A stretch of DNA of 64,000 bases from IMG/VR virus record IMGVR_UViG_3300046319_000183, one strand, 5' to 3'. The stretch comes from a virus. The notes beneath the pieces are model-generated. The model was given only the letters and a program-made list of their open reading frames with translations. It ran no database searches and was not told the origin of the DNA. Of the stretch, positions 16,340 through 49,060 are shown one piece after another. Position numbers and translations under genes: made by a program. Every line of letters starts with the position of its first letter. The stretch's first letter is position 1.

Positions 16340-17202
16340 AAGAACTTACAGAAGTCTTTAAAAAAACAAAGTATCCTGATGGTACTTTTTATGCTACAAA
16401 ACTCGAAGACATTTCACATGGGATTTTTAATGTGTATTTAAACTCCTACGAAGACTTATGGTTTTTAGCTCAATGTGCAAGTTTAATTGATGCTTCAAAA
16501 AGTATCATAAAAATTAATTGCATGATAGACCAACAAGCAGACAGACAGTTTGAACCAAATGAAAGTTTCAATCTTAAGATTGTTGCAAATTTTTTGAATT
16601 CTTTGAACTTTGGTCAAGTTATAATTTTTCATCCTCATTCAGATGTAACTCCTGCTTTAACTAATAACTCAGTAATTTTGGATAACTCGCTGTTTATAAA
16701 GCAAGTATTAGACATTATTACCAGCCCTCAAGCTTATGATGAAGAAGGAAAAAAAGTACCTTTGACTATGTTTGAAGGAGATTATACTACTAGAGATACT
16801 AAAAACTTAATTTTAGTGTCTTCTGATGCTGGTGGAAACAAACCTTTGCAGAAACTTTGTGACAAACTTGATTGGAAAGGAGAAACATTTTCAGCTTTGA
16901 AAGCTAGAAAATATGTTCATGGAAAATCTGAACTTACACAAGAAGTTTTAAGGGACAATTTTGAAGGTAAAGATTTACTCATCGTAGATGACATGTGTTT
17001 ATATGGAGGAACATTTATAGGACTTGCTAAACTTTTTAGAGAAAGAAATATAGGTAAATTGAACTTAGCAATAAGTCATTTAACTGTCCCTAATCCAAAT
17101 CCTTTGTTGTTTGAACTATATGACAAAATTTTTACTACAAATTCAAAACAATTAGAATATGTAGTTCCTTATCAATTTCAAGATAAACTTGTAATTTTAT
17201 GA
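16336..17202 (+). CDS. ribose-phosphate pyrophosphokinase (PRPP synthetase)-like protein, possibly ADPR-PP synthetase (Adps)
   Basis: PRPP-binding motif LLIVDDMCLYGGTF. Prs-like NLILVSSDAGG. Length 288 aa. Confidence 0.6.
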   Translation: MKELTEVFKKTKYPDGTFYATKLEDISHGIFNVYLNSYEDLWFLAQCASLIDASKSIIKINCMIDQQADRQFEPNESFNLKIVANFLNSLNFGQVIIFHPHSDVTPALTNNSVILDNSLFIKQVLDIITSPQAYDEEGKKVPLTMFEGDYTTRDTKNLILVSSDAGGNKPLQKLCDKLDWKGETFSALKARKYVHGKSELTQEVLRDNFEGKDLLIVDDMCLYGGTFIGLAKLFRERNIGKLNLAISHLTVPNPNPLLFELYDKIFTTNSKQLEYVVPYQFQDKLVIL

Positions 17203-18768: not shown

Positions 18769-20511
18769 ATGGAAAAACTAGAAACAATGTTTCGCATAAA
18801 TCCTTTGTATGAAGCAGATGGTTACAAACCAGGGCATAAAGAAATGCTTGCTCCTGGAACAAACAAAGAGTACTTTACATGGATTCCAAGAAATCTTAAG
18901 TACATGCCAAAAAGCATAACAAAAATCATGTCTGCTGGTCAACAATTTACTTGGAGATACATTCATTCAGCTTTTTCTGAATGCTTTTTCTTTACAGAAA
19001 AAAGAAAAACTTTTAGAAAAGAAACTTTAGCTTGGCATAAACATAAAAATCAAGCTTTAAAATTTGCTGAAGATTTAAGTTTCTACTTTGGTATGCCTTA
19101 CGATGGAGAACATTTTGCTGCACTTTGGGATTTAGGTTATTTGCCTGTAAAAATCAAAGCTTTGCCAGAAGGTATGTTTACTCCTCCAAATATTCCACAT
19201 ATGACAGGTATCAATACTGTTGATGGATATGCTTGGTTAGGTTTGTTCCTTGAGACTTTGGTATCAAAGCTTTCGTGGCAAATGCCAATTGCTGCTACTC
19301 TTGGATTTGAATTTAAGAAAAATGCAGTAGAATGGGTAAACAAAACAGACCCTGAAAATTTATGGCTTGCAGATTACATGTGTCATGATTTTCATTCAAG
19401 AGGAGGTAATCCATTTACCTCAATAGCAGTAGGTCTTGGTCATGCTTTGTCAAATTCTGGTTCTGATACACTTAATGTAATTCCAGCATCTCGTTACTAC
19501 TATGATGTTGCAGATGATAAAGTTCTTATCAATTCAGTTTTGGCTTCAGAACATTCTGTTACTTGTACTGGAATATTTTACTATGAAGCTAAGCTAAAAG
19601 ATGGTAAACTAGACCAAGAGATTAAAGACTATTATGCTTTTGATGCTCCTTCTGAAGGTTCAGTCGAAAATCCCGACTATCTTGCTATAGCAGAACTCTT
19701 GAATCTTAGAGATTGGCTATTGAAATTTCCTAAAGGCATTTTGTCAGTAGTTTCTGATACAATGGATTTATGGAAGTTGATTACGCATATTCTGCCTAGA
19801 TTGAAATCTTTGATTATGGCTAGAGATGGAAAACTTGTAATTAGACCTGACTCTGGAGACCCTGTAGAAATTACTTGTGGAATAGGAAATAGAACTGAAT
19901 ATACTAAAGATGGTATTACTACCTACTTTAGAGATGAAGCTATGACTCAAGAAATCTCTATAAATGAAAAGAAAGGAGTAATTGAGTTGCTTGCTGATAT
20001 TTTTGGTACAGTTGAGACTTCTACTGGCTATAAACGCTTAGACTCGCATATTGGAGCAATCTATGGTGATTCAATAACTTTAGAAAGACAAGTACAAATT
20101 TACTCTAGACTTGCAAATAAAGGCTTTGCTGCCACAAATATTGTTCTTGGCATAGGTTCATACACTTATGTGTATATGACAAGAGATACAGCAGGTTTTG
20201 CAGCAAAAGGAGCTTGGTTTCAAGTTCAAGAAGTAAAAGAACCTACTGGTTATGGAACATATCCTGGTTTAGAAACAACTTCTTACAATATCTACAAAGA
20301 CCCAGTAACAGATGATGGGACTAAAAAGTCTTTGAAAGGAATGTGTGCTGTACATAACGATTATGAAGAACCAGAAGGTGACACCTTAATTGTTAAACAA
20401 GAATGTACTGAAGAAGAAGAGGCTCAAGGTCTACTACAAGTAATATATGAAGATGGAAAATTCTTCAACCAGCAGACATTTGAACAAATTAGAGCAAAAA
20501 TAAACAAATAA
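18769..20511 (+). CDS. nicotinamide phosphoribosyltransferase family protein (NadV/NAMPT-like, or Namat)
   Basis: N-terminus EADGYKPGH matches the NAMPT tDSYKvtH segment. Length 580 aa. Confidence 0.65.
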   Translation: MEKLETMFRINPLYEADGYKPGHKEMLAPGTNKEYFTWIPRNLKYMPKSITKIMSAGQQFTWRYIHSAFSECFFFTEKRKTFRKETLAWHKHKNQALKFAEDLSFYFGMPYDGEHFAALWDLGYLPVKIKALPEGMFTPPNIPHMTGINTVDGYAWLGLFLETLVSKLSWQMPIAATLGFEFKKNAVEWVNKTDPENLWLADYMCHDFHSRGGNPFTSIAVGLGHALSNSGSDTLNVIPASRYYYDVADDKVLINSVLASEHSVTCTGIFYYEAKLKDGKLDQEIKDYYAFDAPSEGSVENPDYLAIAELLNLRDWLLKFPKGILSVVSDTMDLWKLITHILPRLKSLIMARDGKLVIRPDSGDPVEITCGIGNRTEYTKDGITTYFRDEAMTQEISINEKKGVIELLADIFGTVETSTGYKRLDSHIGAIYGDSITLERQVQIYSRLANKGFAATNIVLGIGSYTYVYMTRDTAGFAAKGAWFQVQEVKEPTGYGTYPGLETTSYNIYKDPVTDDGTKKSLKGMCAVHNDYEEPEGDTLIVKQECTEEEEAQGLLQVIYEDGKFFNQQTFEQIRAKINK

Positions 20512-20517: not shown

Positions 20518-21609
20518 ATGCAAATTATTAAAACAGGTAAAGAATACAGTTTCTACGAAAATATTGAGACTTTTGACTTACTTCCTACCAAAGAATACAA
20601 ACTTCAAGAAGGAGCTTTTGGAAGACTTTTTTTAGAAGAATCAGAGCCTCAAACTTTGCCTGATAAAATTTATTCTAATGACAAACTTTTTATTGAGCAT
20701 GTTCAAAACGTATTCTCAAAGAGTGATGATTCATTAGGCATTATGCTTTATGGTAAACCTGGATTAGGTAAGAGTTTCACTGCCAAAGTTTTAACTCAAT
20801 CTTTAAATCTACCGATTGTGCATATTACAAAAAATACGCATTCAGGTATGTTTGACTTGCTAAACAAGATTGAGAATCCTTTTGTAGTTTACATTGATGA
20901 GTTTGAAAAAATTTTTCATGATGAATCTGAAAAAGTAAGTCAAATGGAATTTTTGAGTTTTTTGGATGGAAACAACAAAAGCAATACAAAGAAGTTGTTT
21001 ATCATCACTTCAAATGCAAAAATTGAAACTCATTTCTATAACAGACCTTCTAGATTACGTTATGTTCGTAGTTACTACAAACTTGACCAAGCTGTGATTC
21101 AAGAAATCATAGATGACAAGCTACAAGACAAAGCTTTTGTAGATGATTTAATTGAAAATTTGGATGTAGATACTTTAAACATTGACATACTTGTCAAAAT
21201 TATAGAAGAAGTTAATTTAACTGGATGTCCTTACAGTCAGTTCAAATCTTTCTTCAACTACATTGTTGAGAGAGCTACATATCATATTCATCATTTGGAA
21301 AGTAAAGAGCCTTTTAAACTTGGAGCCAAAATTGGAACTAAACATTACACTGATTACAACTTTGAAAGTTATTTTGAAGATTCTTCTAATCTTGAACAAG
21401 GTAATTACTTTCATCAAGAACGTAAAAAAGATTCAAATATCTACTTGTATGGTCTTGAAAGAATGGGTTTTTTTGAAGGTGGAGAAGTAGTTAAAGGCAT
21501 GAAAGTTACCAGAAGCTATGACTCTAAAACTGGTGATGAAATAAATAAAACAGAAGAAGCTTTATTTTATCTAGAAAGAAGCTTCAAGAACATTCAATAT
21601 GTATTATGA
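20518..21609 (+). CDS. AAA+ ATPase
   Basis: Walker A GKPGLGKS. Walker B VVYIDEFE. Confidence 0.55.
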   Translation: MQIIKTGKEYSFYENIETFDLLPTKEYKLQEGAFGRLFLEESEPQTLPDKIYSNDKLFIEHVQNVFSKSDDSLGIMLYGKPGLGKSFTAKVLTQSLNLPIVHITKNTHSGMFDLLNKIENPFVVYIDEFEKIFHDESEKVSQMEFLSFLDGNNKSNTKKLFIITSNAKIETHFYNRPSRLRYVRSYYKLDQAVIQEIIDDKLQDKAFVDDLIENLDVDTLNIDILVKIIEEVNLTGCPYSQFKSFFNYIVERATYHIHHLESKEPFKLGAKIGTKHYTDYNFESYFEDSSNLEQGNYFHQERKKDSNIYLYGLERMGFFEGGEVVKGMKVTRSYDSKTGDEINKTEEALFYLERSFKNIQYVL

Positions 21610-22025
21610 GAATTTTGTGGCTTGATGATTTGAGAGACCCTTTAACATCTCCTTGGATTAGATTAATATTTCAAGCTGCTCCAGAAGTTTCACTCAGCGA
21701 CATAGGCTGGGTGAAATCTTTTGAACACTTTGTACATGATATATCTACCTTGGGATTACCAGAAGTTATATTCTTTGACCATGATTTAGGAGAAAAAGCT
21801 ATGAATCATGCTATAGAGCAGGACTTTAAAGACTTTGACTACTCAAAAGTCCAAGAAAAGACTGGATATGACTGTGTTAAGTGGCTTATAAACTACTGCG
21901 AAGAAAACAATTTACCATTACCTGTATATTATTTTCAAACAGCAAATCCTGTTGGGAAAGAAAATATGCAAAAACTTTTAGAAAATTATGATAATCATAA
22001 ACGGAGTCAAATATCAGGGCAATAA
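21606..22025 (+). CDS. hypothetical protein (possible receiver-like/flavodoxin fold)
   Basis: ILWLDDLRDP ... VIFFDHDLG. Weak resemblance to a CheY-like fold. Low certainty. Confidence 0.35.
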   Translation: MRILWLDDLRDPLTSPWIRLIFQAAPEVSLSDIGWVKSFEHFVHDISTLGLPEVIFFDHDLGEKAMNHAIEQDFKDFDYSKVQEKTGYDCVKWLINYCEENNLPLPVYYFQTANPVGKENMQKLLENYDNHKRSQISGQ

Positions 22026-25286: not shown

Positions 25287-25991
25287 ATGGAAATATATGA
25301 AATAGGAGGGTCTATTAGAGACAGATTACTTGAGATTCAATCTAAAGATAGGGATTTTGTAGTAATTCCTACTGCAAGTACTATAGATTTAGCTTGGAAA
25401 GAAATGACTACTTACCTAGAATTACAAGGGTATCAAATTTTTCTTGCAACTGAATCTTGTTATACAGTTAGGGCTAAGTTTCCTACCATTCATGAAAATG
25501 CAGGTCTTGTAGCTGATTTTGTTCTTGCAAGAAAAGAATTAGGATATTATCCTAATACAAGGCAGCCTATTTTAGCTCCTGGAACTATTGCAGACGACGT
25601 TTGGAGAAGAGACTTTACAATCAACACTTTATTTGAAAAAGATGGAGAAATCATAGATTTAACAGGTAGAGGTATAGAAGATTTAAAATTAAGACTTATC
25701 GATACTCCTTTAGATGCTTATATAACTTTTAAAGATGATCCTCTAAGAATTTTCAGAGCTATAAGATTTTCTATAACCAAAAAGTTTAATTTGTCAGATA
25801 ATGTAGCAGACGCTTTACATTATTCTTATGATTATTCTACAATAAGTATTGAAAGAGTTAGAGAAGAACTTTACAAATGTTTTAAGTTTAATACAATGGC
25901 AACTTTAAAAATGCTTTACAAATTTGAAGCTTTGCAAAAATATGCTTTTGACCATACAGGACTCTGGCTTAAACCTACTACAGAATGTTAG
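25287..25991 (+). CDS. tRNA nucleotidyltransferase / poly(A) polymerase head domain (CCA-adding enzyme family), minimal 234 aa
   Basis: YEIGGSIRDRLL...DRDFVV matches the Pol-beta-type NTase head of CCA-adding enzymes. RRD-like motif WRRDFTIN. Confidence 0.6.
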   Translation: MEIYEIGGSIRDRLLEIQSKDRDFVVIPTASTIDLAWKEMTTYLELQGYQIFLATESCYTVRAKFPTIHENAGLVADFVLARKELGYYPNTRQPILAPGTIADDVWRRDFTINTLFEKDGEIIDLTGRGIEDLKLRLIDTPLDAYITFKDDPLRIFRAIRFSITKKFNLSDNVADALHYSYDYSTISIERVREELYKCFKFNTMATLKMLYKFEALQKYAFDHTGLWLKPTTEC

Positions 25992-26371: not shown

Positions 26372-26781
26372 CAGAAGAAGTTCAAAACCAACAAAATGAC
26401 AATGACAAAGTATCAAAACAGTTTGATGCTAACTTTTCAAAACTAGTAGCCCTTTTAGGAGGACAGTCTATTTTTAAAAAACCTAAAGTCTCTAATTCAG
26501 AAGTTGCATCTCTAGTAGATGAACTTGTAGCTGAACAAAAAGAAGCTGTAATCGTACAGTTTAAAGAAAAAGCAAGAGCAATCTTAAAGAAGAAAACAGA
26601 ATTTGATAAAGAAATCAAAATTGCTGAAGAAAACTTGAAGAAACTTGTTGTACAAAAGAAAAAAGAATTTTCTGAAGAAATGAAAGGTCTTTTTGGAATT
26701 GTAGAAAATATTCAAGAAATTGAAAATCAATACAATGCTTCAATCACAGAAGCTCTAAAAAATGACCCAGAAACTCTTTAA
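26368..26781 (+). CDS. hypothetical acidic coiled-coil protein
   Basis: ATGA overlap. Confidence 0.4.
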   Translation: MTEEVQNQQNDNDKVSKQFDANFSKLVALLGGQSIFKKPKVSNSEVASLVDELVAEQKEAVIVQFKEKARAILKKKTEFDKEIKIAEENLKKLVVQKKKEFSEEMKGLFGIVENIQEIENQYNASITEALKNDPETL

Positions 26782-27832
26782 GAAAGATTCGTCAGGAAAA
26801 ATCAGGTATCTCCTATTCTCTGTAGTAGGAGATACCATTTTACAATCCTCAGGAGTACTAGGTACTCCCAACGAAGTCACACATCAAAAAAGAGCTACTC
26901 CTAAAAATGTAGGAAAAGCAAATGAAACTACAGGAGCTGAGCAAGCTTTAAATGAAGTACAATCTTCAATAAAGGAAAAACTAACAGAAGGTTATTTCTT
27001 AACTCAAGAAGAAGCAGAAACTACAGAAGTAATTCTACCAATGCTTGCTAAAGATTTTCACAAAGAATCTAAAAAAATTGATTGGAATAACTGTTATGCT
27101 CAACCTAAACTAGATGGGATGCGTTGTCTAGCTTTTATTAACAATGGTGAAGTTAGACTTATGTCTAGAGATGGTAAGGAAATTCACAACATGGACCACA
27201 TTAAAGAACTTTTCAAAAACTTAACAGGTGTTTTTATTCTTGATGGAGAGCTTTATAATAAAGATTTAGGTGGATTCCAATCTCAAATGAAAGCTATCAA
27301 AAAATATTCAGCTAAATCAGAGCAAATAAATTACAATGTCTACGATATGATTCTCCCAAAAGAGTTTAGAGTAAGATGGTTTCATCTAAGAGATGTTGTA
27401 GCTAAGGTTAATCATCCTAATTTAAAGTTAGTTGATACTTATACTTTACACTCAGAAAAACAACTAAAAGAACTTCATTCATCTAATATTACTGAAGGAT
27501 ATGAGGGTTCAATTGTTAGGTGGGGAGATGAACCCTACAAAGTTAATGGTAGAAGTTCTAACCTGCTTAAATACAAAGATTTTCAAGACATCGCTTTGCC
27601 TATAATTGACATAGTACCAGCAGACCAAAGACCAGAATGGGGTAAACCTATCTTTGAGCTTAATGGAAAACAGTTTTCAGCTGGAATGAAATATTCCCAT
27701 GAAGATAGAATTGATTTTTTAAAAAACAGAAAGGATTATATTGGAAAAACTGCTGAAGTTAGATTTTTCGAGTACACAGATGGAGGATTGCCTCGCTTCC
27801 CTATTATGTGGGGTATTAGGTTAGATAAGTAA
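26762..27832 (+). CDS. ATP-dependent DNA ligase
   Basis: Motif I KLDGMR. Motif III ILDGELY. Motif IV EGSIVRW. Motif V LLKYKDF. Confidence 0.75.
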   Translation: MTQKLFKKDSSGKIRYLLFSVVGDTILQSSGVLGTPNEVTHQKRATPKNVGKANETTGAEQALNEVQSSIKEKLTEGYFLTQEEAETTEVILPMLAKDFHKESKKIDWNNCYAQPKLDGMRCLAFINNGEVRLMSRDGKEIHNMDHIKELFKNLTGVFILDGELYNKDLGGFQSQMKAIKKYSAKSEQINYNVYDMILPKEFRVRWFHLRDVVAKVNHPNLKLVDTYTLHSEKQLKELHSSNITEGYEGSIVRWGDEPYKVNGRSSNLLKYKDFQDIALPIIDIVPADQRPEWGKPIFELNGKQFSAGMKYSHEDRIDFLKNRKDYIGKTAEVRFFEYTDGGLPRFPIMWGIRLDK

Positions 27833-29005: not shown

Positions 29006-29241
29006 CAGCTAGAGAGTATATAAAGAAATACCTCTATGTAACAAAGGATGGTGTAGAAGATGTGCATGATTCATTAGGAGCTGTAGAAAATGTTTTAATT
29101 GAGTTTGCTAAAATGCATGTCAAAAAAGCTTTAGAAGCAGCTTTAGAAGATTCTCCTCATGGTTCATCTACAGATATACCTACATATGAAGATATGAAGT
29201 TTGCCATTCTAGGAGCTTACCCAGATTCATTAATCAAATAA
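29002..29241 (+). CDS. hypothetical protein
   Basis: ATGA overlap. Confidence 0.35.
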   Translation: MTAREYIKKYLYVTKDGVEDVHDSLGAVENVLIEFAKMHVKKALEAALEDSPHGSSTDIPTYEDMKFAILGAYPDSLIK

Positions 29242-29243
29242 GT

Positions 29244-29444
29244 ATGAAGTATTTTGTTTGTTGGAGGACTTGGAATAGAGATTTACCACAATGGAGACCT
29301 ATTCTTAAATTTCAAAGATGTAAAACTTTAGAGAAAGCTGAAAGAATGAAAAAAAATCTTGAAATCATAGAAAGATTAGGATTTGACCCAATTTTGTCTT
29401 TTAGAGGACATCAAAGAAAAATAAAAACAAAAAATTATGAGTAA
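29244..29444 (+). CDS. hypothetical protein
   Basis: ORF track. Confidence 0.35.
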   Translation: MKYFVCWRTWNRDLPQWRPILKFQRCKTLEKAERMKKNLEIIERLGFDPILSFRGHQRKIKTKNYE

Positions 29445-29709
29445 AACTCAAATAGTTTATATTCCAGATCCAACAGAAATTGAAGAAATTGACAAATGGT
29501 GTCAATTTGATTTGACAAAAAAAGAACTTATTGTGTTTACTCCTGAAGAATTTGAGGACTTTAAACATAGAGTTGCAGATAAAGCAAGAGCTATTTTAGA
29601 GTATGATTATAATTATTGTGGAAATACAGGAAGTGAATATCCTGGAGACGCAGTTGCAAAAGTTGATAAAGCATCAATTTATAATACATTTTACGAATTA
29701 GAACTATGA
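29437..29709 (+). CDS. hypothetical protein
   Basis: ORF track. Confidence 0.35.
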   Translation: MSKTQIVYIPDPTEIEEIDKWCQFDLTKKELIVFTPEEFEDFKHRVADKARAILEYDYNYCGNTGSEYPGDAVAKVDKASIYNTFYELEL

Positions 29710-29933
29710 ACTCAGTAACTTATAAATATAATATAGGAGAATCCGTTTGGGGTATAGATAAAAATAAAATTTTCTGTGCAGTAGTAGGAGATGTAAATAT
29801 ACATGTTTCAAAAGCTGGATTTAAAGTTAATTATGGTTTACTCCTTGGAGAAGACTCTTTTTCTTATGCAACTATATTTAAACAAGAAGGAGATTTATTT
29901 TTAACAAAACAAGACTTAATTAAAAATTTATAA
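29706..29933 (+). CDS. hypothetical protein
   Basis: ATGA overlap. Confidence 0.35.
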   Translation: MNSVTYKYNIGESVWGIDKNKIFCAVVGDVNIHVSKAGFKVNYGLLLGEDSFSYATIFKQEGDLFLTKQDLIKNL

Positions 29934-30244
29934 TGGAAGACGAAGATTTGCTAGTATTAGCAGCAAAAAACAATACTACAGAGTGGAACACTCTAAAATT
30001 TGCAGAAGAGCTTTTTGAATGTGGAGAAGCTGTAATAAAATATTCTACTAAAAAAGGTTCAAATAAACCTAGCTTAGAAAATATGGCTAAAGAATTTATA
30101 GATGTAATGTTAAGAGGAACTATGTTTTTTGCAAAAGAGTTTCCTGATGATGAAATAGATAAAATTCTAGAAACTTATCTTGAGAAAAAAGAACAAGGAA
30201 TTATAAATAGATTCCAAAGTAAACCAGGAGCTAAAGATGCGTAA
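29933..30244 (+). CDS. hypothetical protein
   Basis: ORF track. Confidence 0.35.
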   Translation: MEDEDLLVLAAKNNTTEWNTLKFAEELFECGEAVIKYSTKKGSNKPSLENMAKEFIDVMLRGTMFFAKEFPDDEIDKILETYLEKKEQGIINRFQSKPGAKDA

Positions 30245-31370
30245 GGTATTTCTAGTCTACGTAGATGCTTCTGATACAACTCAGAATAACAAATACTACA
30301 ATATGGAAGAATTGGGAGCCCAATTCAAAGTAGAGTATGGAAGAATTGGTTCTACTAAAACAGAATTATTTTATCCTATAAGCAAATGGAATTCTACTTA
30401 TTCCTCTAAAGTTAAAAAAGGCTACAAGGATATTTCTGACCTAAAAGAAGCAAAAACTGTTGTAAGTTCAGGAAGTGGAAACTCTGCTTTTGATGAATTT
30501 TATGACACTTTTCAAAAATATACAGGAGCTTCTGTTAGGCGTAATTACGTAATAGAAAGCTGTACTCCACAACAAATTTTACAAGCACAAACTTTATTAA
30601 ACCAAATTGTACCCCTTACAGATTTAGAACAGATTAACAAACTTTTATTGGAACTCTACAAAGTAATTCCAAGAAGAATGAGTAATGTAAGAGACTATCT
30701 TGTTACAGATACAGCTCAGATAAATCCAAGAGTTTCAACAGAGCAAAATGCTATTGACTCTATGGATAGTTCTAACATTACTCAAGTGTCTAATCCATTC
30801 TTAACTTTAGGTATAGAATTTGAAGAGATTAAAAACCACAAAGAAATTGAGAATTTCATATATTCTACTATGTCTGGTAAGAATTTGAAAATTCATAAAA
30901 TCTTTAGAATACTAAAACCCGAACTCAAGACACAACATGATGCTTGGGTAGAAAAACAAGAAGACAAAAAAATACAACTTTTAATTCATGGAACAAGGAA
31001 TCCTAACATCTTTAGTATTTTAAAATCTGGTTTATTAATTAGACCTACAAATGCTGCTGTAATTTCAGGTGCTGCATATGGAGAAGGTACTTACTTTTCT
31101 CATCATACTGCTAAGTCTTTGGGATATACAGGCTCAGACCAAGATAAAATCTTTATTCTACATGATGTTCATGTAGGAAAACAATATACCTACAAAGGCT
31201 GGTATAGAGAAGGTAAAGACATATCTAGGAGTGAGATGAATTATAGAGATTTAAAAAAGAGAGGGTGTGACTCTTTATATGTAGAAGCTGGTGATGGTCT
31301 TTTAAACTCAGAATACATAGTTTACAACACAGAACAATATTTTTACAACTATTTAATTTGGATGAAATGA
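30237..31370 (+). CDS. PARP-like ADP-ribosyltransferase: WGR domain plus H-Y-E catalytic domain
   Basis: WGR-like EYGRIGSTKTELFYP...KKGY. Catalytic LLIHGTRNPNIFSILKSGL (H-G-T), GEGTYFS (Tyr), NSEYIVYN (matches PARP1 NEYIVYD catalytic Glu). Confidence 0.7.
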   Translation: MRKVFLVYVDASDTTQNNKYYNMEELGAQFKVEYGRIGSTKTELFYPISKWNSTYSSKVKKGYKDISDLKEAKTVVSSGSGNSAFDEFYDTFQKYTGASVRRNYVIESCTPQQILQAQTLLNQIVPLTDLEQINKLLLELYKVIPRRMSNVRDYLVTDTAQINPRVSTEQNAIDSMDSSNITQVSNPFLTLGIEFEEIKNHKEIENFIYSTMSGKNLKIHKIFRILKPELKTQHDAWVEKQEDKKIQLLIHGTRNPNIFSILKSGLLIRPTNAAVISGAAYGEGTYFSHHTAKSLGYTGSDQDKIFILHDVHVGKQYTYKGWYREGKDISRSEMNYRDLKKRGCDSLYVEAGDGLLNSEYIVYNTEQYFYNYLIWMK

Positions 31371-31867
31371 ATCAACAAAAAATTCAAAAAGTACTCTCAA
31401 CAATAGGAGCTCTTTTAACCACTAGTGCAACTACTACAACTCTTGATGTGAAGAATGCATTAAGAAAATCTGATCCTAAAGATAAATGGTATCAAGATGA
31501 TATTCATGACATTATGGAAGACCTTGCAAAACAAGGACAACTTACTTACACAGACCAAGGTACTTATAGAATTTATTCAAAAGTTCCTGTGGCAACACCT
31601 ACAAACACACAAACGACTTCTTCTTTAAAAAAACTGTCAAGAACTCAAGTAGTTCAAGCTATTAGAGACTCTGGCTATAAATTTATAACTGTAACTTTTG
31701 TCAAAACAGACAATACTACAAGAGTTATGAACTGCCAAGTTTCTAAAAATGATTTTATGGACAACCTTGGTTACATTAAAGCTCATACAAAAGATGGTCT
31801 TAAAAGAGTGAATCCAAAAACTATCCAGACAGTTAAAATTAAAGGAGAGGTTTTACAAGTTAAATGA
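31358..31867 (+). CDS. hypothetical protein
   Basis: ORF track. Confidence 0.45.
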   Translation: MDEMNQQKIQKVLSTIGALLTTSATTTTLDVKNALRKSDPKDKWYQDDIHDIMEDLAKQGQLTYTDQGTYRIYSKVPVATPTNTQTTSSLKKLSRTQVVQAIRDSGYKFITVTFVKTDNTTRVMNCQVSKNDFMDNLGYIKAHTKDGLKRVNPKTIQTVKIKGEVLQVK

Positions 31868-32556
31868 TAAACTACAAACACATCTTACGTTTTCTAACAA
31901 AAGAAGGAGTAGGGATTTCCATTGAGGAATTCTTATTCCTTTTATGTGTTAGATTACATCATGAAGAACCTGCTGCAGACTGGCCAGAGGTTAGAACTTA
32001 TATTCATACCTACTATGCTCAGAATAAGCATTATGGTAAAGAGATTTTACCTCATGATTTAGCTTTAGCAACATCTTGGGGAAAAATGATAGATAAACTA
32101 GTCTTACAAGGTTATTTAGTAGACTATAGAAAAGACAAAAGTATTGTTTCTTTTACACAACTTGCTGTTACAGAAACTTTTACAGACAAAATTTGGACAA
32201 ATGATAAAGAAGCTGTTTGGAAAAGGCTTACAGAATTTGTCTTTGAAAATTGTGGTACTGCTATGATGCTTCCTACAGGAAAACAATTAGGTTATTTCTT
32301 TGTAAATCAAGGAGATCCTATTATAAATAATCCTGAGAAACTTAAAGATTACTTTTGGTGTAACATTTGTAATTATGGAACAAAGTTTGAGATAGAACAA
32401 TTCTTTCATGATTTTGAAATATATTTACAACAAAATAAACTACAAATGAAAATCTCTAATTTTTTAATTAATTATCATGCTGGCACACTGAAAAGTGAAA
32501 TTCACATGATAAAAAACAAGGCTGATGAAGTAGGTTCAATATTTAAAAGAAGATAA
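31864..32556 (+). CDS. hypothetical protein
   Basis: ATGA overlap. Confidence 0.45.
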   Translation: MINYKHILRFLTKEGVGISIEEFLFLLCVRLHHEEPAADWPEVRTYIHTYYAQNKHYGKEILPHDLALATSWGKMIDKLVLQGYLVDYRKDKSIVSFTQLAVTETFTDKIWTNDKEAVWKRLTEFVFENCGTAMMLPTGKQLGYFFVNQGDPIINNPEKLKDYFWCNICNYGTKFEIEQFFHDFEIYLQQNKLQMKISNFLINYHAGTLKSEIHMIKNKADEVGSIFKRR

Positions 32557-33596
32557 TGAGTTTCAAAAATTCCCTAAAATTTATAAAACAAAGACAAGCA
32601 AACGAGATTAATGGTATTCCTACCAAGTTTGAGACTTTAAAAAGAGTCTTACCTGCTTGGGATATAAATACTACTACTATTCTTGCAGCTGCAACTGGAG
32701 CTGGAAAGACTTCTTGGGCTTGGAGACATGCTGTTCTAGATGTACTTGACTTTGTAAAAGAACATCCAGAGATAGAAGTAGAGATTTATTATTTTTCTTT
32801 GGAACTTGTAAGATTAGAATTAGACATCAAAGTCTTTTCTTCTCTGTTGTATGAGAAATTCCACAAAACCTACAACAAAACTATCTTTACAGGGCTCACC
32901 GATGAGCGATTGACTAAAGAAGAGTTGGACTATCTGAATAATGAATGTAGAGAATACTTGGAATTTCTTGAATCTAAAGTTCATATAATTGATTCTGCAA
33001 ACACACCTAATTCAGCTTTTGCATATCTAGTAGAAAAAGTAGCAAAGAAAGCAGGTTACAAATTCATTATTATAGATACAGTTAATGCATTTTCTGCTGA
33101 TGCTGGAGAGAATAAAATGGATTCTATTAAAAAGTGGAATCAAGATTATGCTTTGAAAGTATTTAGGAATCAATTTGATTGTACATTGGTGCAAGTCTCA
33201 CAAATCGATAAATCTTCGACAACTAGACAATTTTCTTCTAAAGGAGAATCAGTATATGAAAAGTATATTCCTACTCTTGAGGGATTGGGTAATGATAAAG
33301 AAGCTTCAAACTCAGCTAGTCTTGTTTTGGGTTTACTAAATCCCTTGACATATCATATTCCAGAAGTAGATGGTTATCATCCTGCCAAATTTGAAGGAGG
33401 TTTTAGAATGCTCTATGTTTTAAAAAATAACTTTGGAGATTCTAACTTAGCAATACCTTATTACTTTGAAGGAGTAACAAATACTTGGACTGAAATTCAA
33501 GAAGACCCAGTAGAATTTAAAGACCCTAAATTGTACGAAAAGTATGTTAAAAAAGATTTAATTTTACCTAAAATTATTAGTAATTTTATTAGGTAA
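32556..33596 (+). CDS. RecA-fold ATPase, DnaB-like helicase C-terminal domain type
   Basis: Walker A AATGAGKTS. Walker B FIIIDTVNAF. Confidence 0.5.
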   Translation: MSFKNSLKFIKQRQANEINGIPTKFETLKRVLPAWDINTTTILAAATGAGKTSWAWRHAVLDVLDFVKEHPEIEVEIYYFSLELVRLELDIKVFSSLLYEKFHKTYNKTIFTGLTDERLTKEELDYLNNECREYLEFLESKVHIIDSANTPNSAFAYLVEKVAKKAGYKFIIIDTVNAFSADAGENKMDSIKKWNQDYALKVFRNQFDCTLVQVSQIDKSSTTRQFSSKGESVYEKYIPTLEGLGNDKEASNSASLVLGLLNPLTYHIPEVDGYHPAKFEGGFRMLYVLKNNFGDSNLAIPYYFEGVTNTWTEIQEDPVEFKDPKLYEKYVKKDLILPKIISNFIR

Positions 33597-33649: not shown

Positions 33650-34486
33650 ATGAAGTTAGAATTAGCCTCGAAAAAACAGGTAAAACTAAAGCTCCAAGTA
33701 GGTGGAGCATCAGGTAGTGGAAAGACTACAGCTGCCCTACTTATAGCCTATGGCTTAGTAGGAGATTGGTCTAAAATTGCAGTAGTAGATTCTGAAAATG
33801 GTTCAGCATCTTTATATGCAAACAACGAAGAATTAGGAATTGGACAGTTTTATATCATACCAATGGTAGAAGCTTCTCCAGAAAATCAAATCAAAGCTAT
33901 GGATATATGTGCAGCAGCAGGTATTGAAGCAGTTATCATTGATTCTGGTACACACACTTGGGAATGGTGTTTAGATTACAACTCTAAACTAGCAGGAAAT
34001 AGCTATACAAACTGGGCTATTACTGGAAAAAAATACGATGCTTTCAAAAAGAAAATGCTTCAAACTCCAATGCATGTTATCATGACTGTAAGAAAGAAAG
34101 AAGATTATTCTATGGAGCAAGACGACAAAGGTAAAACTAAGATAGTAAAACAAGGATTGAAAGAAATTTCAAGAGAAGGTATGTCTTATGAATTTACTAC
34201 AGTCTTTGATGTAGATGCTACACACTTAACAACAGCTTCTAAAGACAGAACAAATATATTTGTAGACTTATCTCCTTTCAAGATAACAGCAGATACAGGG
34301 AAAAAAATTCTAGAATGGTGTAATTCAGGAACTGCACAAGAAACAGAAGATATTTCTGTAGCAATAGCAGAAGTTCTTGAAACAGACTCACTAGAAAAAT
34401 TAACAGAGGTTTATAAAAAATATATACACCTTGCAAAACAACCAGATTTTATTACAGCACTTAAAACTAAAAAAGAACAGTTCTAA
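33650..34486 (+). CDS. AAA_24/Sak4-like recombination ATPase
   Basis: Walker A GGASGSGKTT. IAVVDSENG. AVIIDSGTHTWEW. Confidence 0.5.
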   Translation: MKLELASKKQVKLKLQVGGASGSGKTTAALLIAYGLVGDWSKIAVVDSENGSASLYANNEELGIGQFYIIPMVEASPENQIKAMDICAAAGIEAVIIDSGTHTWEWCLDYNSKLAGNSYTNWAITGKKYDAFKKKMLQTPMHVIMTVRKKEDYSMEQDDKGKTKIVKQGLKEISREGMSYEFTTVFDVDATHLTTASKDRTNIFVDLSPFKITADTGKKILEWCNSGTAQETEDISVAIAEVLETDSLEKLTEVYKKYIHLAKQPDFITALKTKKEQF

Positions 34487-40704: not shown

Positions 40705-40910
40705 TGGAAACTAAACCTGTAAATGCCTTTAAAAGAGGCTCTACTATACTAGTAGGAAGTTATAAAGATACAAGAGAAGCTAATAGAATGTTATTTAATA
40801 ACAACTGGCAAAAGCTTACACAAATTAAACATAATCTCACTCGCCATAGAAGAAGTCCAGTGGAACATCCTGAACATGGTGAATTATATTTTAGATATGC
40901 TCAAAATTGA
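40704..40910 (+). CDS. hypothetical protein
   Basis: ORF track. Confidence 0.3.
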   Translation: METKPVNAFKRGSTILVGSYKDTREANRMLFNNNWQKLTQIKHNLTRHRRSPVEHPEHGELYFRYAQN

Positions 40911-41433
40911 ACAAGGAGACTTATTTCAAAGAGCTCTCAAAGGAGAGTTTGATGTAATAGGTCATGGAACTAACTGTTTCTGTACCGCACCATATGGAGG
41001 TATAGCAGCATTATTTGAAAAACATTTTGTTATTTCAGATATGGAAGGAGAAAATCCTATGTACAGAGGAAAGTACAATAAAATGGCTTCAGTAGGAATG
41101 AAAAAGGTCTACATACATGAAGTTACCAAACAGCTTATTCAGCAAAAAGACTTCGAAGCTTCGCTTATACCTCAAATGTACAAACACTTGGTAGTAGCTA
41201 ACTGTTATACTCAATTTAATGCTGGTCCAGATTTAGATACTATAGCTTTGCTTATGTGTCTAAAGAAATTAGCCTACTATTGCAAAGCAAACAATTCGAA
41301 GTTAGCAATTCCTTTAATTGGTTGTGGTATAGCTGGAGGAGACCCAAAAGTTATTGTACCATACATGCAGAAGCTTCTCGCAGAAGTAGATGCAACACTT
41401 ATTGTTTTACCAGAAGATTTTAAAAGGATATGA
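40897..41433 (+). CDS. macro domain (ADP-ribose binding/hydrolase) protein
   Basis: DVIGHGTNCFCTAPYGGIAALF and IPLIGCGIAGGDP resemble macro-domain Gly-rich motifs. Start placed at ATG 40897. Confidence 0.5.
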   Translation: MLKIEQGDLFQRALKGEFDVIGHGTNCFCTAPYGGIAALFEKHFVISDMEGENPMYRGKYNKMASVGMKKVYIHEVTKQLIQQKDFEASLIPQMYKHLVVANCYTQFNAGPDLDTIALLMCLKKLAYYCKANNSKLAIPLIGCGIAGGDPKVIVPYMQKLLAEVDATLIVLPEDFKRI

Positions 41434-42053
41434 AAATTAAATATCCTAAAACATTCCACGTCCCTTCTTCTTTAGGTTGCACTTCAGATGATAAAAAGTT
41501 AGAAAGTATAGACTCATTAGAACAAGGTCTATACTTGATAACAGAAAAGATGGATGGAGAAAACACTACTATGATGAAGGATTGTATTTATGCAAGGTCT
41601 TTGGATAGTAATAATCATCCTTCTAGAAACTATGTTAAAGGTATTTGGGGCAATATCTCTTATCGAATCCCTAAGAATTGGAGAATTTGTGGAGAAAATC
41701 TGTATGCTAAACATTCTATTTACTACAAAAATCTAGTTGGGTACTTTTATGTGTATTCCATATGGAATGAAGAGAATGTGTGTTTGTCTTATGTAGATAC
41801 TAATATGTGGTGTAACGAACTTAATCTACATCATGTTCCAGTACTAGGCATGATTCAGAAAGAAGAACTTGTTACATATGAATTTAAACTAGATTTAAAT
41901 GAACATGAAGGGTATGTGGTTAGAAACACAAAAGCTTTTCATTTTAATGACTTTCAGAAAAATGTAGCAAAGTGGGTTAGACCACAGCATGTACAAACTG
42001 ATGCACATTGGATGCAGTCAGAAATTGTACCAAATCAATTAATATATGGATGA
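41430..42053 (+). CDS. RNA-ligase-like nucleotidyltransferase (Rnl2-type KxDG motif), minimal 207 aa
   Basis: Motif I ITEKMDGEN. Motif III-like ICGENLY. Motif IV EGYVVR. Motif V KWVR. Confidence 0.5.
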   Translation: MKIKYPKTFHVPSSLGCTSDDKKLESIDSLEQGLYLITEKMDGENTTMMKDCIYARSLDSNNHPSRNYVKGIWGNISYRIPKNWRICGENLYAKHSIYYKNLVGYFYVYSIWNEENVCLSYVDTNMWCNELNLHHVPVLGMIQKEELVTYEFKLDLNEHEGYVVRNTKAFHFNDFQKNVAKWVRPQHVQTDAHWMQSEIVPNQLIYG

Positions 42054-43528: not shown

Positions 43529-44417
43529 AGTATTGATTCTAGTTGGGTTGCCATAACTAGGTTCTGGTAAAAGTACATTTGCTAAAGAACATTTAGCAAA
43601 AAATCCAAATTGGACTAGAGTTAACAGAGATGATTTTAGAGGAATGCTTCAGAATCAACAAATCTGTGAACCAAAAATAGAAGCTATGATTAATGAGTTG
43701 CAAGACTTCACAATCATACAAGCTTTAAAAGCAAAGCAGAATGTCATAATAGACAACACAAATCTTAAGACTAAGTGCATAGAGCATTTCTGCCAACTTG
43801 TAGAGGATAAAGCTGAGGTAGATTTTTTATTATTCAATACTTCTATAAAAAAATGTATTGAAAGAGATAAAGAAAGAACTAATCCTGTAGGAGCTGTCGT
43901 AATTGAGCGTATGCACAAAGATTTAGAAATACTTCTAGATGCTCATGATTTTTCTCATAGACCTGTTAAGCCTAAAATCTATACAAATCCTACACCAAAC
44001 CTTCAGTTGCCCAATTGTTATGTATTCGACATAGATGGTACTCTTGCTCATATGAATGGACACAGGGGCCCATTTGATTGGTCTAAAGTAGATAGAGATG
44101 ATTATGATTTGGCTGTAGTAGCAACTTTAAGGAAATTATCTCAAACAGATAAAATAATTCTACTTTCTGGTAGAGATGAAGAAGCTAGAGAAAAGACCTT
44201 AGAATGGCTAGAATTTTACATGATACCATTTGATGCTTTGTATATGAGACCTAAAGGAGACTTTAGAAAAGATACAATAATCAAAAAGGAATTGTACAAT
44301 CAGCATTTGAAAGATAAGTTTAATGTTATAGCCGTTTTTGATGACCGCACCTCAGTAGTTCAAATGTGGAGAAAACTTGGTCTTAAATGTTTTGAAGTAG
44401 AACATCATGATTTTTAA
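43482..44417 (+). pseudogene. T4-type polynucleotide 5'-kinase/3'-phosphatase (Pnkp/PseT homolog) interrupted by an in-frame TAA inside the P-loop
   Basis: Frame reads MKNLNNSTATQRKNLKVLILVGLP*LGSGKSTFAKEHLAKNPNWTRVNRDDFR...VFDIDGTLAHMNGHRGPFD...VFDDRTSVVQMWRKLGLKCFEV. It is collinear with T4 Pnk (GCPGSGKST, NRDDYR, DVDGTL, DDRTQVVEMWRRIG). Stop TAA at 43554-43556. The phosphatase half (track ORF 43644-44417) is intact. Confidence 0.7.
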
Positions 44418-46222: not shown

Positions 46223-46476
46223 AAGAAGGAGATATTATTCTAGGTTATTTTAGTGGTATTTTTAAAGTAACAAAAGTAACTGCTAGACCAAACATTGCAC
46301 CATTAATTAGTATGGTAAAAGTCTTTAATTCTAAATTTGAGCCAGTACATAGTAAGAAAGAATATTCGTGTGATGCAGGTTATTGTGTACACATAGAAGA
46401 ATATTTAGAAAATGAGCTACTAGCTCTAGAAAAAAGAAAAAAAAAGCTTTTAGATTTTAAAAGAGAAAATTTATGA
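46219..46476 (+). CDS. hypothetical protein
   Basis: ATGA overlap. Confidence 0.4.
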   Translation: MKEGDIILGYFSGIFKVTKVTARPNIAPLISMVKVFNSKFEPVHSKKEYSCDAGYCVHIEEYLENELLALEKRKKKLLDFKRENL

Positions 46477-48788: not shown

Positions 48789-49060
48789 TGGATGAGATAA
48801 TAGAAATAATACTACAAAGAAACAAGCCTACAGGAAACTGGGGCATACTTCTAAATGGTGTAAGAATTACTTGTAGAAGTGGTAAAGCAACTTGGAAAAC
48901 TAAAGGACATGCTCAAAGTGCTTTTACAAATCATTTAAGTTGTATGAATTTAGAATTAGATTATTACTTAAAAGACTATGGAAGTATCAGAAGAATTCCT
49001 AAAAAAATAACACAAGAATTAATAAATTCAGGAAATTTAACTTTTAAAGAATATGTCTAA
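48788..49060 (+). CDS. hypothetical protein
   Basis: ORF track. Confidence 0.4.
   Translation: MDEIIEIILQRNKPTGNWGILLNGVRITCRSGKATWKTKGHAQSAFTNHLSCMNLELDYYLKDYGSIRRIPKKITQELINSGNLTFKEYV

Follow-up and report, generated by a model that had tools for sequence, protein, structure and literature searches.

PARPs are central to DNA repair in eukaryotes and far less understood in bacteria and phages. Bacterial PARPs such as HaPARP of Herpetosiphon aurantiacus, CdPARP of Clostridioides difficile and those of the Cytophagales/Clostridiales 'clade 1' (Garcia-Saura et al., 2018) combine a WGR, a helical and a PARP_cat domain in about 370-450 aa and carry an H-Y-E triad. Both named enzymes carry out PAR automodification in vitro in the presence of NAD+ and activated DNA (PMC5966428, PMC8120803). 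The phage type as such is not new: it is already annotated in Cellulophaga phages, and the poly(ADP-ribose) polymerase of phage phi4:1 was listed by Perina et al. (2014). No functional or biochemical study of any phage PARP was found in the searchable literature.

The DNA analyzed here, referred to as the window, is a stretch of 64,000 nucleotides from the IMG/VR virus record IMGVR_UViG_3300046319_000183. An earlier note, made from the letters of this stretch, had proposed a virus-encoded protein with a WGR-like and a PARP catalytic domain and had joined it to a macro-domain protein, Tpt1 and NAD+ salvage genes in one ADP-ribosylation module. The features on which the present analysis is based are collected in Table 1.

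Table 1. Features of the window discussed in the text (nucleotide positions; aa, amino acids).
Feature	Position	Strand	Remarks
Tpt1/KptA RNA 2'-phosphotransferase	14216..14713	+	PF01885 E 7.6e-34, 117.7 bits (cutoff 26)
Divergent Prs-like protein	16336..17202	+	candidate Adps of NARP1
NAMPT/NAPRTase-family protein	18769..20511	+	580 aa; candidate Namat of NARP1
cREC (cyclic-phosphate processing receiver) domain protein	21606..22025	+	
PolyA_pol-head nucleotidyltransferase (CCA-adding-enzyme-like)	25287..25991	+	phi4:1 homologue gp032 directly upstream of phi4:1 PARP
ATP-dependent DNA ligase (DNA_ligase_A_M + OB_2)	26762..27832	+	2.4 kb upstream of PARP
103-aa ORF, function unassigned	29933..30244	+	3' end overlaps PARP start by 8 bp
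PARP-family ADP-ribosyltransferase	30237..31370	+	377 aa, ATG start
PARP, WGR-like domain	30237-30431		residues about 1-65
PARP, helical (HD-like) domain	30483-30809		residues about 83-191
PARP, ART catalytic domain	30816-31367		residues about 194-377
Conserved PARP partner	31367..31867	+	166 aa; homologue of phi4:1 gp030, phrog_33401
230-aa ORF, function unassigned	31864..32556	+	between partner and DnaB-like helicase; 52% identical in related locus L006
DnaB-like replicative helicase	32556..33596	+	co-directional, tightly packed string shared with PARP
AAA_24 (RecA/Sak4-like) ATPase	33650..34486	+	within PARP gene string, before 35786
Macro-domain protein, TARG1/Poa1p/DarG (ALC1-like) clade, BT1257/SCO6735-like subtype	40897..41433	+	start may be 40876
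RNA ligase (PF09414)	41430..42053	+	immediately downstream of macro gene
Polynucleotide kinase-phosphatase, Pnkp (AAA_33 kinase + HAD_PNKP)	43644..44417	+	
Second RNA ligase (PF09414, PHA02142-type OB domain)	46473..47774	+	
Thg1-like 3'-5' nucleotidyltransferase	49053..49919	+	tRNA 5'-end repair family

Domain architecture and active site of the phage PARP

The ORF is confirmed as the WGR- and PARP-type protein of the earlier note: it is a PARP-family enzyme with a WGR-HD-ART layout and an intact H-Y-E triad. Pfam PF00644 covers residues 201-376 (E 3.2e-22, 79.4 bits, cutoff 26.7) and is matched by all 34 aligned family members; NCBIfam holds no model matching the protein. The WGR profile PF05406 stays below threshold on the window protein alone (16.6 bits vs 22) and is matched by 28 of the 34 members, with a best E of 3.5e-8. 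The WGR motif of the window protein, Y34-G35-R36-I37-G38, is conserved across the 34 sequences as [Y/W/F]-G-R-[V/I]-G, with G35, R36 and G38 invariant and with 28 Y, 4 W and 2 F at the first position. Tyrosine is likewise common at this position in bacterial PARPs (PMC5966428). Pfam PARP_reg gives a weak match, and this in three of the 34 members only, which resembles the bacterial clade 1 enzymes, whose helical domain is often invisible to the same profile and present in models.

The translation carries the segments LLIHGTRNPN, AAYGEGTYFSHH and GLLNSEYIVYN, and its active-site residues align to HGS...GIYFAD...KSANY...NEYIVY of PARP1. The catalytic His, Tyr and Glu had been assigned correctly: H251, Y286 and E359 are invariant in the 34 sequences, as are G252, K293, S294 and Y297 of the NAD+ pocket. 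The PARP1 equivalents of the triad are H862, Y896 and E988, and the profile alignment places N357 and S358 of the window protein at Y986 and N987 of PARP1.

Structure prediction and a fold search, suggested by the earlier note as a check, led to the same family. The AlphaFold2 model (pLDDT 84, pTM 0.73) consists of a beta domain (residues 1-65), helices (83-191) and an ART domain (194-377). Its top Foldseek matches are DNA-break-bound PARP1 WGR-HD-CAT chains, 8g0h_D (E 1e-21) and 4dqy_C (TMq 0.72), together with the PARP2 chain 6x0l_P, and WGR-containing PARP1/2 chains reach a TMq of 0.70-0.72 vs 0.51-0.59 for CAT-only chains. At the sequence level, the best PDB matches are PARP1 catalytic fragments, and the family profile finds PDB PARP1 with E 3.6e-21 in an alignment that enters the PARP1 helical domain from position 108. 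A diphtheria-toxin-like or other mono-ART fold is ruled out, since the top sequence and structure matches are all to PARP1/2/4 and tankyrases; neither a mono-ART devoid of WGR nor a failure to recover PARP was seen in the profile, sequence or fold searches. With human PARP1-3 the protein shares its catalytic and NAD+-pocket residues, and the HD motif FYTLIPHDFG has its counterpart in LYKVIPRRM, whereas overall identity is about 17-21%, the helical domain is shorter, and zinc fingers, BRCT domain and N-terminal extension are missing.

A mostly viral clade

The window protein matches PHROG 23333 end to end and falls into a mostly viral clade together with the phi4:1 PARP (gp031, shared with phi17:2; AGO49444.1). 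The two enzymes are 52% identical over their full length and alike in size (377-383 aa), WGR-helical-ART layout and H-Y-E triad. Their surroundings are also similar: phi4:1 encodes an adjacent partner (gp030, 32% identity) with a DNA ligase next to it, a CCA-adding-enzyme-like gene nearby, a cREC protein and a member of the same macro family (gp002). The gene order is rearranged, however: in phi4:1 the ligase immediately follows the partner, and the CCA enzyme immediately precedes the PARP. The Cellulophaga phage records yielded no detectable Tpt1 homologue, and phi4:1 and the window share no similarity at the nucleotide level. A nucleotide search with positions 28000-34000 returned no match among deposited phages, so the genome is not closely related to any of them.

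PARPs had been supposed to be rare in bacterial viruses, and tblastn found homologues in just 14 of 50,697 deposited phage records. In metagenomes the clade forms 220 clusters at 50% identity (E<1e-30), and the family numbers roughly 1,900 members. Its motifs L[IF]HGTRN[PA]N and NSEYI[VI][YF] occur at 2 loci among 185,579 species-representative genomes, which makes the clade essentially viral or metagenomic; the motifs are clade-specific and the count says little on other bacterial PARPs.

A conserved partner gene and a linked DNA ligase

The most constant neighbour of the PARP is a small gene that is translationally coupled to it, its ATG overlapping the PARP stop codon by 4 bp (ATGA). Homologues of about 160-210 aa directly adjoin the PARP, on either side, in every full-length locus of the clade (the window lineage, phi4:1 and the related loci L006/7, L011-L021 and L026; local-database E 1e-20 to 1e-81). 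No significant match to the partner was obtained in Pfam, NCBIfam or a PDB profile search. Its AlphaFold model is weak (pLDDT 67), because a word-indexed homologue search gave only 5 close relatives and hence a shallow alignment; it has a winged-helix-like N-domain (residues about 1-72), a disordered linker and a small beta-rich C-domain that is possibly WYL_2/Sm-like. Foldseek gave no significant fold match for this model, the best being to CapW (E 2e-3, poor TM). The 103-aa ORF on the other side of the PARP was dropped as a partner candidate, since it is conserved in near-identical contigs only and not detectably in L006.

The order PARP, partner, 230-aa ORF, DnaB is conserved, and the first strong terminator-like site on the + strand lies at 35786, past the DnaB-like and AAA_24 genes. 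A scan for sigma-70 promoters found 84 sites vs 82 expected and gave no information.

An ATP-dependent DNA ligase gene is contiguous with the PARP/partner pair in L011-L016, L021 and phi4:1, lies within 2.4-3.8 kb of it in the window, L006 and L017, and is found less than 5 kb from the PARP in most lineages of the clade; L018-L020 and L026 showed none in their flanks. Several of the ligase-partner-PARP loci probably represent one lineage and are hence not independent, and part of the proximity could be module co-location, as phage replication genes cluster anyway. The distant PARPs of phages XacN1 and Klebsiella 05F01 have neither partner nor ligase next door, so that the context of the window PARP may not generalize.

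Macro, Tpt1 and NAD+ genes

The genes that the earlier note had grouped with the PARP are all real (Table 1). The macro ORF alone has no Pfam match at E<=0.01 and none in NCBIfam, and three of its homologues carry PF01661. The family profile matches the solved macrodomains BT1257 (E 6.6e-18), SCO6735 (8.4e-12), TARG1 (4.5e-11), Poa1p (7e-10) and DarG (6.5e-8), and the family shares a GCG[IL]AGG loop and an N-x-x-x-Q motif with BT1257 and SCO6735. In an HMM alignment to 4j5r, the catalytic residues of TARG1, K84 and D125, fall on the invariant Q113 and A153. A TARG1-like mechanism was rejected because this Lys/Asp dyad is absent. The Tpt1 translation contains LRH, IRALQGH and KRHAAHL, which hold the R-H...R...R active-site motif residues of Tpt1/KptA. 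Upstream of the PARP, the Prs-like gene lies within ten genes of the NAMPT-like gene, the arrangement by which NARP1 is recognized in phages and for which an NMNAT is not needed (bioRxiv 10.1101/2024.02.11.579819); a NARP1 is predicted here, and no NMNAT-type match was found within the window. In Klebsiella 05F01 a PRTase lies near the PARP; considered as a relative of the Prs-like protein, it proved unrelated on comparison.

The coherence of these genes with the PARP, in contrast, is weakly supported. A module in which the PARP is writer and the macro protein a dedicated eraser or reader of PARP-made marks, with Tpt1 and NAD+ salvage alongside, gains some credit from relatives: macro and PARP co-occur in three lineages, including phi4:1/phi17:2 (gp002; 32% identity, E 4e-27) and Klebsiella phage 05F01, where they lie 5.5 kb apart. 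SCO6735, the closest characterized relative, reverses glutamate-linked ADP-ribosylation by PARP1 (PMC5087735), and the macro protein, the only ADP-ribose hydrolase detected within the window, could erase PARP-made marks. Yet members of the macro family are found in 1,034 phage records, nearly all devoid of PARP, vs the 14 with PARP. The macro gene is 9.5 kb away from the PARP in the window and beyond +-10 kb in 10 of 12 other distinct full-length loci (L006, L010-L021, L026), the exceptions on distance being phi4:1 (17 kb) and Klebsiella 05F01. Tpt1 is 16 kb from the window PARP, and none of the related PARP loci (20+) has it in its +-8-10 kb flanks. Homologues of Tpt1 occur in 97 phage records, whose organism tally includes no Cellulophaga, Xanthomonas or Stenotrophomonas phage, and among the 60 of these 97 that were listed LR756500.1 is the only one shared with the PARP list. 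The conserved neighbours of the PARP are the small partner and the DNA ligase instead, and the macro gene is assessed as outside this unit. A single module of PARP, macro, Tpt1 and NAD+ genes is therefore quite improbable.

What the macro gene does keep to is RNA repair. Its ORF overlaps the start of the RNA ligase by 4 bp and heads a cluster of RNA ligase, Pnkp, second RNA ligase and Thg1-like genes; in relatives it accompanies Pnkp, RNA ligase, Thg1 and Prs-like/NAMPT-like genes, and in the relative L029, Prs-like and NAPRTase (NARP1-like) genes come directly after a macro-Pnkp pair. Experimentally, Poa1p-like phage macro proteins are ADPR-1''-phosphate phosphatases that feed NARP1 (bioRxiv 10.64898/2026.01.28.702374). 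Phage Adpp sits in the NARP1 operon, whereas the window macro gene sits beside an RNA ligase, about 20 kb from the NARP1-like genes. Taken together, the genes for macro, Tpt1, cREC, RNA ligases, Pnkp and the Thg1-like protein most plausibly make up a pathway of RNA repair, and Tpt1 is assessed as belonging to this pathway and not to a PARP unit. The ADP-ribose-phosphate by-products of the pathway, and ADP-ribose of any source, would flow to the NARP1-like genes that rebuild NAD+. In this economy the PARP may be one consumer of NAD+ rather than the hub of a module with those genes. PARG (canonical or DUF2263 type), ARH and NADAR matches were found neither among the + strand ORFs of 70 aa or longer nor in the single large ORF on the minus strand of the window. 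A reversible poly(ADP-ribose) cycle is hence not evident, unlike in the bacteria of HaPARP and CdPARP, which pair their PARP with a PARG.

Possible functions of the PARP

The preferred reading, to which we assign a probability of roughly 0.45, is that of an ADP-ribosyltransferase activated by DNA breaks or nicks and serving phage DNA replication and repair. The WGR domain would bind replicating phage DNA at a nick or break, and binding would relieve the block exerted by the helical domain on the NAD+ site. The activated enzyme could then ADP-ribosylate itself, the co-translated partner or nearby replication and repair proteins, with short or long chains as product, and the mark may flag or regulate the site on behalf of the replisome and the linked ATP-dependent DNA ligase. 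In this scheme the small partner, with its winged-helix-like N-domain, would most likely be a cofactor or the main substrate. More speculative, and unlikely, is the extension that PARP, partner and ligase form a phage unit for nick and break sensing and sealing, a virus counterpart of PARP-dependent strand-break repair, in which modification of the partner or of the DNA 5'-phosphate would control or prime ligation and NARP1 would regenerate the NAD+.

Somewhat unlikely, too, is a role in host take-over or counter-defence, in which the enzyme would modify host RNA polymerase, translation factors or defence proteins like T4 Alt, ModA and ModB, possibly with chains, and the WGR domain would merely localize it to DNA. 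Phage PARPs have been suggested to act like phage ARTs that transfer polymers (Iyer et al., 2021; PMC7824862), and the distant phage PARPs are surrounded by accessory genes of unrelated kinds (for a vWA protein in XacN1, for ribonucleotide reductase in Klebsiella 05F01). The window is also rich in counter-defence-type functions, including the NARP1-like and RNA-repair genes. The PARP of this clade, however, sits coupled within a replication gene string, tied to a ligase and a DNA-binding-like partner, and it retains the full WGR-HD apparatus that imposes DNA-break dependence in PARP1-3.

The same linkage to a DNA ligase would suit an enzyme acting on the DNA itself, as would the minimal WGR-HD-ART architecture, which is that of PARP2/3. 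Terminal phosphates at nicks or ends would then be modified, as by PARP2 and PARP3 in vitro, either to prime sealing by the linked ligase independently of ATP or to cap and protect phage DNA ends. PARP1-3 do modify DNA terminal phosphates (PMC5861426, PMC5725667), and T4, archaeal and human ligases seal PARP3-modified 5'-phosphate DNA in the absence of ATP, although the ligated ADP-ribosylated ends leave an abnormal site in the reported system (PMC5843604). The argument is nevertheless one of analogy and gene linkage, and sequence features do not separate DNA from protein targets; nucleic acid as the target is considered improbable. PARP hyperactivation depletes NAD+ in eukaryotes, and a break-triggered NAD+ sink, shutting down the host or competing phages while NARP1 restores phage NAD+, would fit the NAD+ rebuilding genes of the phage. 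Nothing specific to the locus supports such a superinfection or abortive device, which would run counter to the investment of the phage in high NAD+; the linkage to ligase and replication genes favours a constructive role, and the sink is very improbable.

With the window, a diverged member joins a PARP clade whose size in metagenomes far exceeds what the literature would suggest. Its macro, Tpt1 and NAD+ genes are to be read with the RNA-repair and NARP1 literature and not as evidence of a PARP writer and eraser. The fixed two-gene unit of a PARP and a small DNA-binding-like partner, usually tied to a DNA ligase, offers a concrete and cheap experimental entry.

Domain architecture and fold of the viral PARP

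The PARP gene has an ATG start, and the motifs quoted in the earlier note, LLIHGTRNPN, AAYGEGTYFSHH and GLLNSEYIVYN, are all found in its translation. Pfam recognizes a PF00644-type PARP catalytic domain at residues 201-376 (E 3.2e-22, 79.4 bits, cutoff 26.7); its WGR match, at residues 6-43, falls below threshold (16.6 bits, cutoff 22). A PDB sequence search returned exclusively catalytic fragments of PARP1, PARP2 and PARP3 (best E 4.6e-10). A profile built from 34 aligned homologues (identity 46-74%) matches PARP1 with an E value of 3.6e-21; this alignment begins in the PARP1 helical regulatory domain (HD; profile position 108) and pairs PARP1 'FYTLIPHDFG' with 'LYKVIPRRM' of the viral protein. 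Scanned singly, all 34 homologues match PARP, 28 match WGR (best E 3.5e-8) and three match PARP_reg weakly. Residues H251, G252, Y286, K293, S294, Y297 and E359 are invariant throughout the alignment and correspond to H862, G863, Y896, K903, S904, Y907 and E988 of PARP1. The 'WGR' motif of the family reads [Y/W/F]-G-R-[V/I]-G, with Tyr commonest at the first position, and the same form was described for bacterial PARPs by Garcia-Saura et al. (PMC5966428).

The AlphaFold2 model (mean pLDDT 84, pTM 0.73; low confidence limited to loop 268-278) comprises a beta-rich domain (residues 1-65), a helical bundle (83-191) and an ART fold (194-377). A Foldseek search of the PDB ranked highest the WGR-HD-CAT chains of human PARP1 in complex with a DNA double-strand break (8g0h_D, E 1e-21; 4dqy_C, TMq 0.72), together with PARP2 at a bridged break (6x0l_P, TMq 0.70); entries holding only the catalytic fragment scored 0.51-0.59. 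Neither a diphtheria-toxin-like transferase devoid of WGR nor a failure of profiles to recover PARP, the outcomes named in the earlier note as speaking against its WGR + PARP identification, was found. Pfam, the family profile, the invariant residues and the predicted fold agree that the protein is a compact WGR-HD-ART PARP.

Known relatives and rarity

This PARP is not new, but belongs to an already known, rare and functionally uncharacterized kind of phage gene. Along its entire length it shares 52% identity with a protein of Cellulophaga phages phi4:1 and phi17:2 that GenBank annotates as 'poly (ADP-ribose) polymerase', and its match to PHROG 23333 (E 3.6e-122) likewise spans the whole sequence. 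Four viral PARPs, including the phi4:1 gene, and their conserved H-Y-E triad were noted before (Perina et al., 2014; PMC4245714), and phage PARPs were mentioned with the Xanthomonas phage XacN1 protein BBA65562.1 as an example (Iyer et al., 2021; PMC7824862). Bacterial WGR-helical-ART PARPs have been reviewed, and those of H. aurantiacus and C. difficile carry out PARylation in vitro in reactions containing activated DNA (PMC8120803, PMC5966428). No experimental study of any phage PARP was found in the literature searched.

The proposed rarity in phages holds: homologues occur in 14 of 50,697 deposited phage records, which fall into five groups (Cellulophaga, Xanthomonas, Stenotrophomonas, Klebsiella and one uncultured jumbo phage), and BFVD holds only three full-length structural analogues. 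In metagenomes the family is large, with 1,894 representatives of 50%-identity clusters at E<1e-3 and 220 at E<1e-30, mostly 370-430 aa long. Among 185,579 species-representative genomes, the clade signature motifs were recovered at two loci only, one being a 64-kb MAG contig that carries this PARP-partner gene pair as well.

A conserved PARP-partner-ligase unit

PARP shares its first 8 bp with the preceding ORF and has an AGGAG sequence 7 nt 5' of its ATG; its stop overlaps the ATG of the partner ORF (ATGA). The first strong plus-strand terminator-like site lies downstream of the DnaB-like helicase and AAA_24 ATPase genes.

Features of the window discussed in the text
Feature	Coordinates	Strand	Remarks
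HNH/GIY-YIG-type gene	3511-4053		homing-endonuclease type
Adenylosuccinate-synthetase-like	13168-14223		351 aa, short; 3' end overlaps Tpt1 ORF
Tpt1	14216-14713		PF01885, E 7.6e-34
Prs-like	16336-17202	+	divergent
Deoxyribosyltransferase-like	17853-18314		nucleoside 2-deoxyribosyltransferase-like
NAMPT family	18769-20511	+	580 aa
cREC domain protein	21606-22025	+	cyclic-phosphate processing receiver; upstream of cluster
CCA-adding-enzyme-like	from 25287	+	upstream of cluster
PARP	30237-31370	+	377 residues
Partner	31367-31867	+	166 aa
DnaB-like helicase	from 32556	+	between PARP and terminator-like site
AAA_24 ATPase	from 33650	+	between PARP and terminator-like site
Terminator-like site	35786	+
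Thymidylate-synthase-like	37184-38374		396 aa, with insertion
HNH/GIY-YIG-type gene	39709-40134		homing-endonuclease type
Macro	40897-41433	+	cluster head; alternative upstream ATG 40876 possible
RNA ligase	from 41430	+	4-bp overlap with macro
Pnkp kinase-phosphatase	from 43644	+	kinase + HAD phosphatase
Second RNA ligase	from 46473	+	PHA02142 OB domain
Thg1-like enzyme	from 49053	+	cluster end (cluster 40897-49919)
GHKL protein and next ORF	54771-57774		634 aa and 374 aa, overlapping
Large minus-strand ORF	57754-60666	-	970 aa
Family A DNA polymerase	60602-62896

An iterative profile search of all ORFs of the fetched loci placed a partner homologue directly beside PARP in every full-length clade locus (E 1e-20 to 1e-81). 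It lies downstream in the window lineage, L006/7 (39% identity to the L006 ORF), phi4:1 (gp030, 32%), L017, L018-20 and L026, and upstream, in the order ligase-partner-PARP, in L011-L016 and L021. The homologues share an N-terminal domain of ~70-85 residues, followed by C-terminal halves of two types. The partner was modeled with modest confidence (pLDDT 67); the N-domain (pLDDT ~80) consists of three helices and a hairpin. Because its non-significant fold matches are mostly winged-helix DNA-binding domains and wHTH-WYL regulators (CapW, BrxR, DriD), and one family member matches Pfam WYL_2 (E 7e-4), the partner is tentatively termed winged-helix-like, possibly WYL-like.

In L011-L016, L021 and phi4:1 the pair directly adjoins an ATP-dependent DNA ligase gene, which in the window, L006 and L017 is separated from it by 2.4-3.8 kb; the flanks of L018-20 and L026 contain no such gene. 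Neither partner nor ligase neighbors the distantly related PARPs of XacN1 and Klebsiella. In the jumbo phage XacN1, PARP is followed by a protein with a von Willebrand factor A domain in place of the winged-helix partner (L008 7282-7932), which suggests that partners differ between PARP lineages. As far as found in the literature searched, the PARP-partner-ligase unit is undescribed. The region also shows strain-level mosaicism (window 27869-28755 versus 7038-7170 of the near-identical contig L003): the 199-aa and 96-aa ORFs that separate DNA ligase from a DUF4884 ORF are missing from L003, whose ligase is only 84% identical, whereas flanking genes are 97-100% identical.

RNA-repair and NAD+ genes

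The earlier note had joined PARP, macro, Tpt1 and NAD+ salvage genes into one ADP-ribosylation module. Tpt1 is genuine, with its R-H...R...R residues in place. The macro ORF has no Pfam match itself; its assignment is upheld by 32% identity to the annotated 'macro domain containing protein' of phi4:1 (gp002) and by family profile matches to BT1257 (E 7e-18), SCO6735, TARG1, Poa1p and DarG. Its loops N-x-Y-T-Q and GCGIAGG are those of BT1257 and SCO6735, whereas the catalytic Lys84 and Asp125 of TARG1 are replaced by invariant Q113 and A153.

The linkage tests spoke against grouping these genes around PARP. Tpt1 homologues occur in 97 phage records; among the matches listed (60 of the 97), LR756500.1 is the only record shared with the PARP list, and the organism tally of Tpt1 records names no Cellulophaga, Xanthomonas or Stenotrophomonas. 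The macro family spans 1,034 phage records, and most of these are PARP-less phages of the Felixounavirus and T4-like groups. In profile searches of more than 20 related PARP loci, Tpt1 was absent from the flanks (±8-10 kb), and macro turned up in three cases only: the window lineage, phi4:1 (17 kb from PARP) and Klebsiella 05F01 (5.5 kb).

Macro instead heads an RNA-repair cluster. Together with Tpt1, cREC and the CCA-adding-enzyme-like gene, which the window carries at other sites, this cluster amounts to an unusually complete set of tRNA-repair genes. The cluster is kept in L028 (macro, Pnkp, DUF932, RNA ligase ... YqeY, Thg1; 7001-13827), and in L029 macro and Pnkp (7001-8516) are followed by DUF932, Prs-like, deoxyribosyltransferase-like ... 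NAPRTase genes. A YqeY-like protein counts among the conserved members when window, L028 and L029 are taken together. A close analogue is the ligase, PARG and kinase/phosphatase operon of D. radiodurans (PMC11833690). The 2'-phosphate that tRNA ligation leaves behind is taken off by Tpt1, yielding ADP-ribose 1''-2'' cyclic phosphate, which is processed further by 2H/cREC and macro domains (PMC7824862); according to a prediction by Aravind's group, cREC would open the cyclic phosphates at RNA ends or on ADP-ribose. The Poa1p-like phage macro protein Adpp converts ADPR-1''-phosphate to ADPR for NARP1 (bioRxiv 10.64898/2026.01.28.702374). Such published work accounts for the macro, Tpt1 and cREC genes without any PARP. 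A cREC homologue also lies at L001 34713-35099, and the phi4:1 version is 39% identical.

The NAD+ genes are present as claimed. The Prs-like and NAMPT-family pair, with no NMNAT found anywhere in the window, fits the signature published for NARP1, a pathway in which NAD+ is rebuilt by Adps plus Namat, with ADP-ribose and nicotinamide as the starting compounds (bioRxiv 10.1101/2024.02.11.579819). The NAMPT-like proteins carry insertions (580 aa here and 863 aa in L029, versus ~465 profile positions), and the L029 pair (9547-14206) comes immediately after macro and Pnkp, an arrangement reminiscent of NARP1-AP. The single module should be replaced by two units, (a) PARP and partner, with DNA ligase, in the replication block, and (b) an RNA-repair and NAD+-recycling set including macro, Tpt1, cREC and the NARP1-like genes.

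Other genes of the window

The adenylosuccinate-synthetase-like protein scores 119 bits with PurA and 59 bits with PurZ (aminoadenine), both far below the model cutoffs. The thymidylate-synthase-like and deoxyribosyltransferase-like genes, a small ORF matching DUF1599 ('nucleotide modification associated domain 1') and a dNMP kinase carried by relatives hint at modified DNA bases. Homing-endonuclease-type genes (HNH, SegE-like GIY-YIG and a small HNH_2 ORF) are scattered among the metabolic genes. The 634-aa protein with a GHKL/HATPase_c_3 N-domain and the 374-aa ORF, which had no matches, may represent an rIIA/rIIB-like pair. The only large minus-strand ORF, without Pfam match, sits just before the DNA polymerase gene, and GC skew turns negative at 58-60 kb; the rest of the window is plus-strand.

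Possible roles of the phage PARP

The active site is intact, and family membership, architecture and gene linkage are direct observations. DNA dependence, targets, chain length and biological role we infer from PARP1-3 and the two characterized bacterial PARPs. On this analogy, the best-supported reading is a DNA-nick- or break-activated ADP-ribosyltransferase in a phage replication/repair module: a nick or break would activate PARP, the coupled partner would be its cofactor or substrate, and DNA ligase would be the downstream effector.

The phage enzyme might alternatively modify host proteins, as proposed by Iyer et al. (PMC7824862), or ADP-ribosylate DNA ends and so prime or block ligation, for which PARP3 offers a precedent (PMC5843604). 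Since SCO6735 removes Glu-linked ADP-ribose (PMC5087735), the macro protein could possibly erase PARP-made marks, as the writer/eraser module of the earlier note would have it; gene context does not indicate this, and the linkage tests go against a PARP-centered grouping. PARP might also serve as an NAD+ sink. The conserved PARP-partner-ligase unit makes the long-open role of prokaryotic and viral PARPs accessible to experiment.
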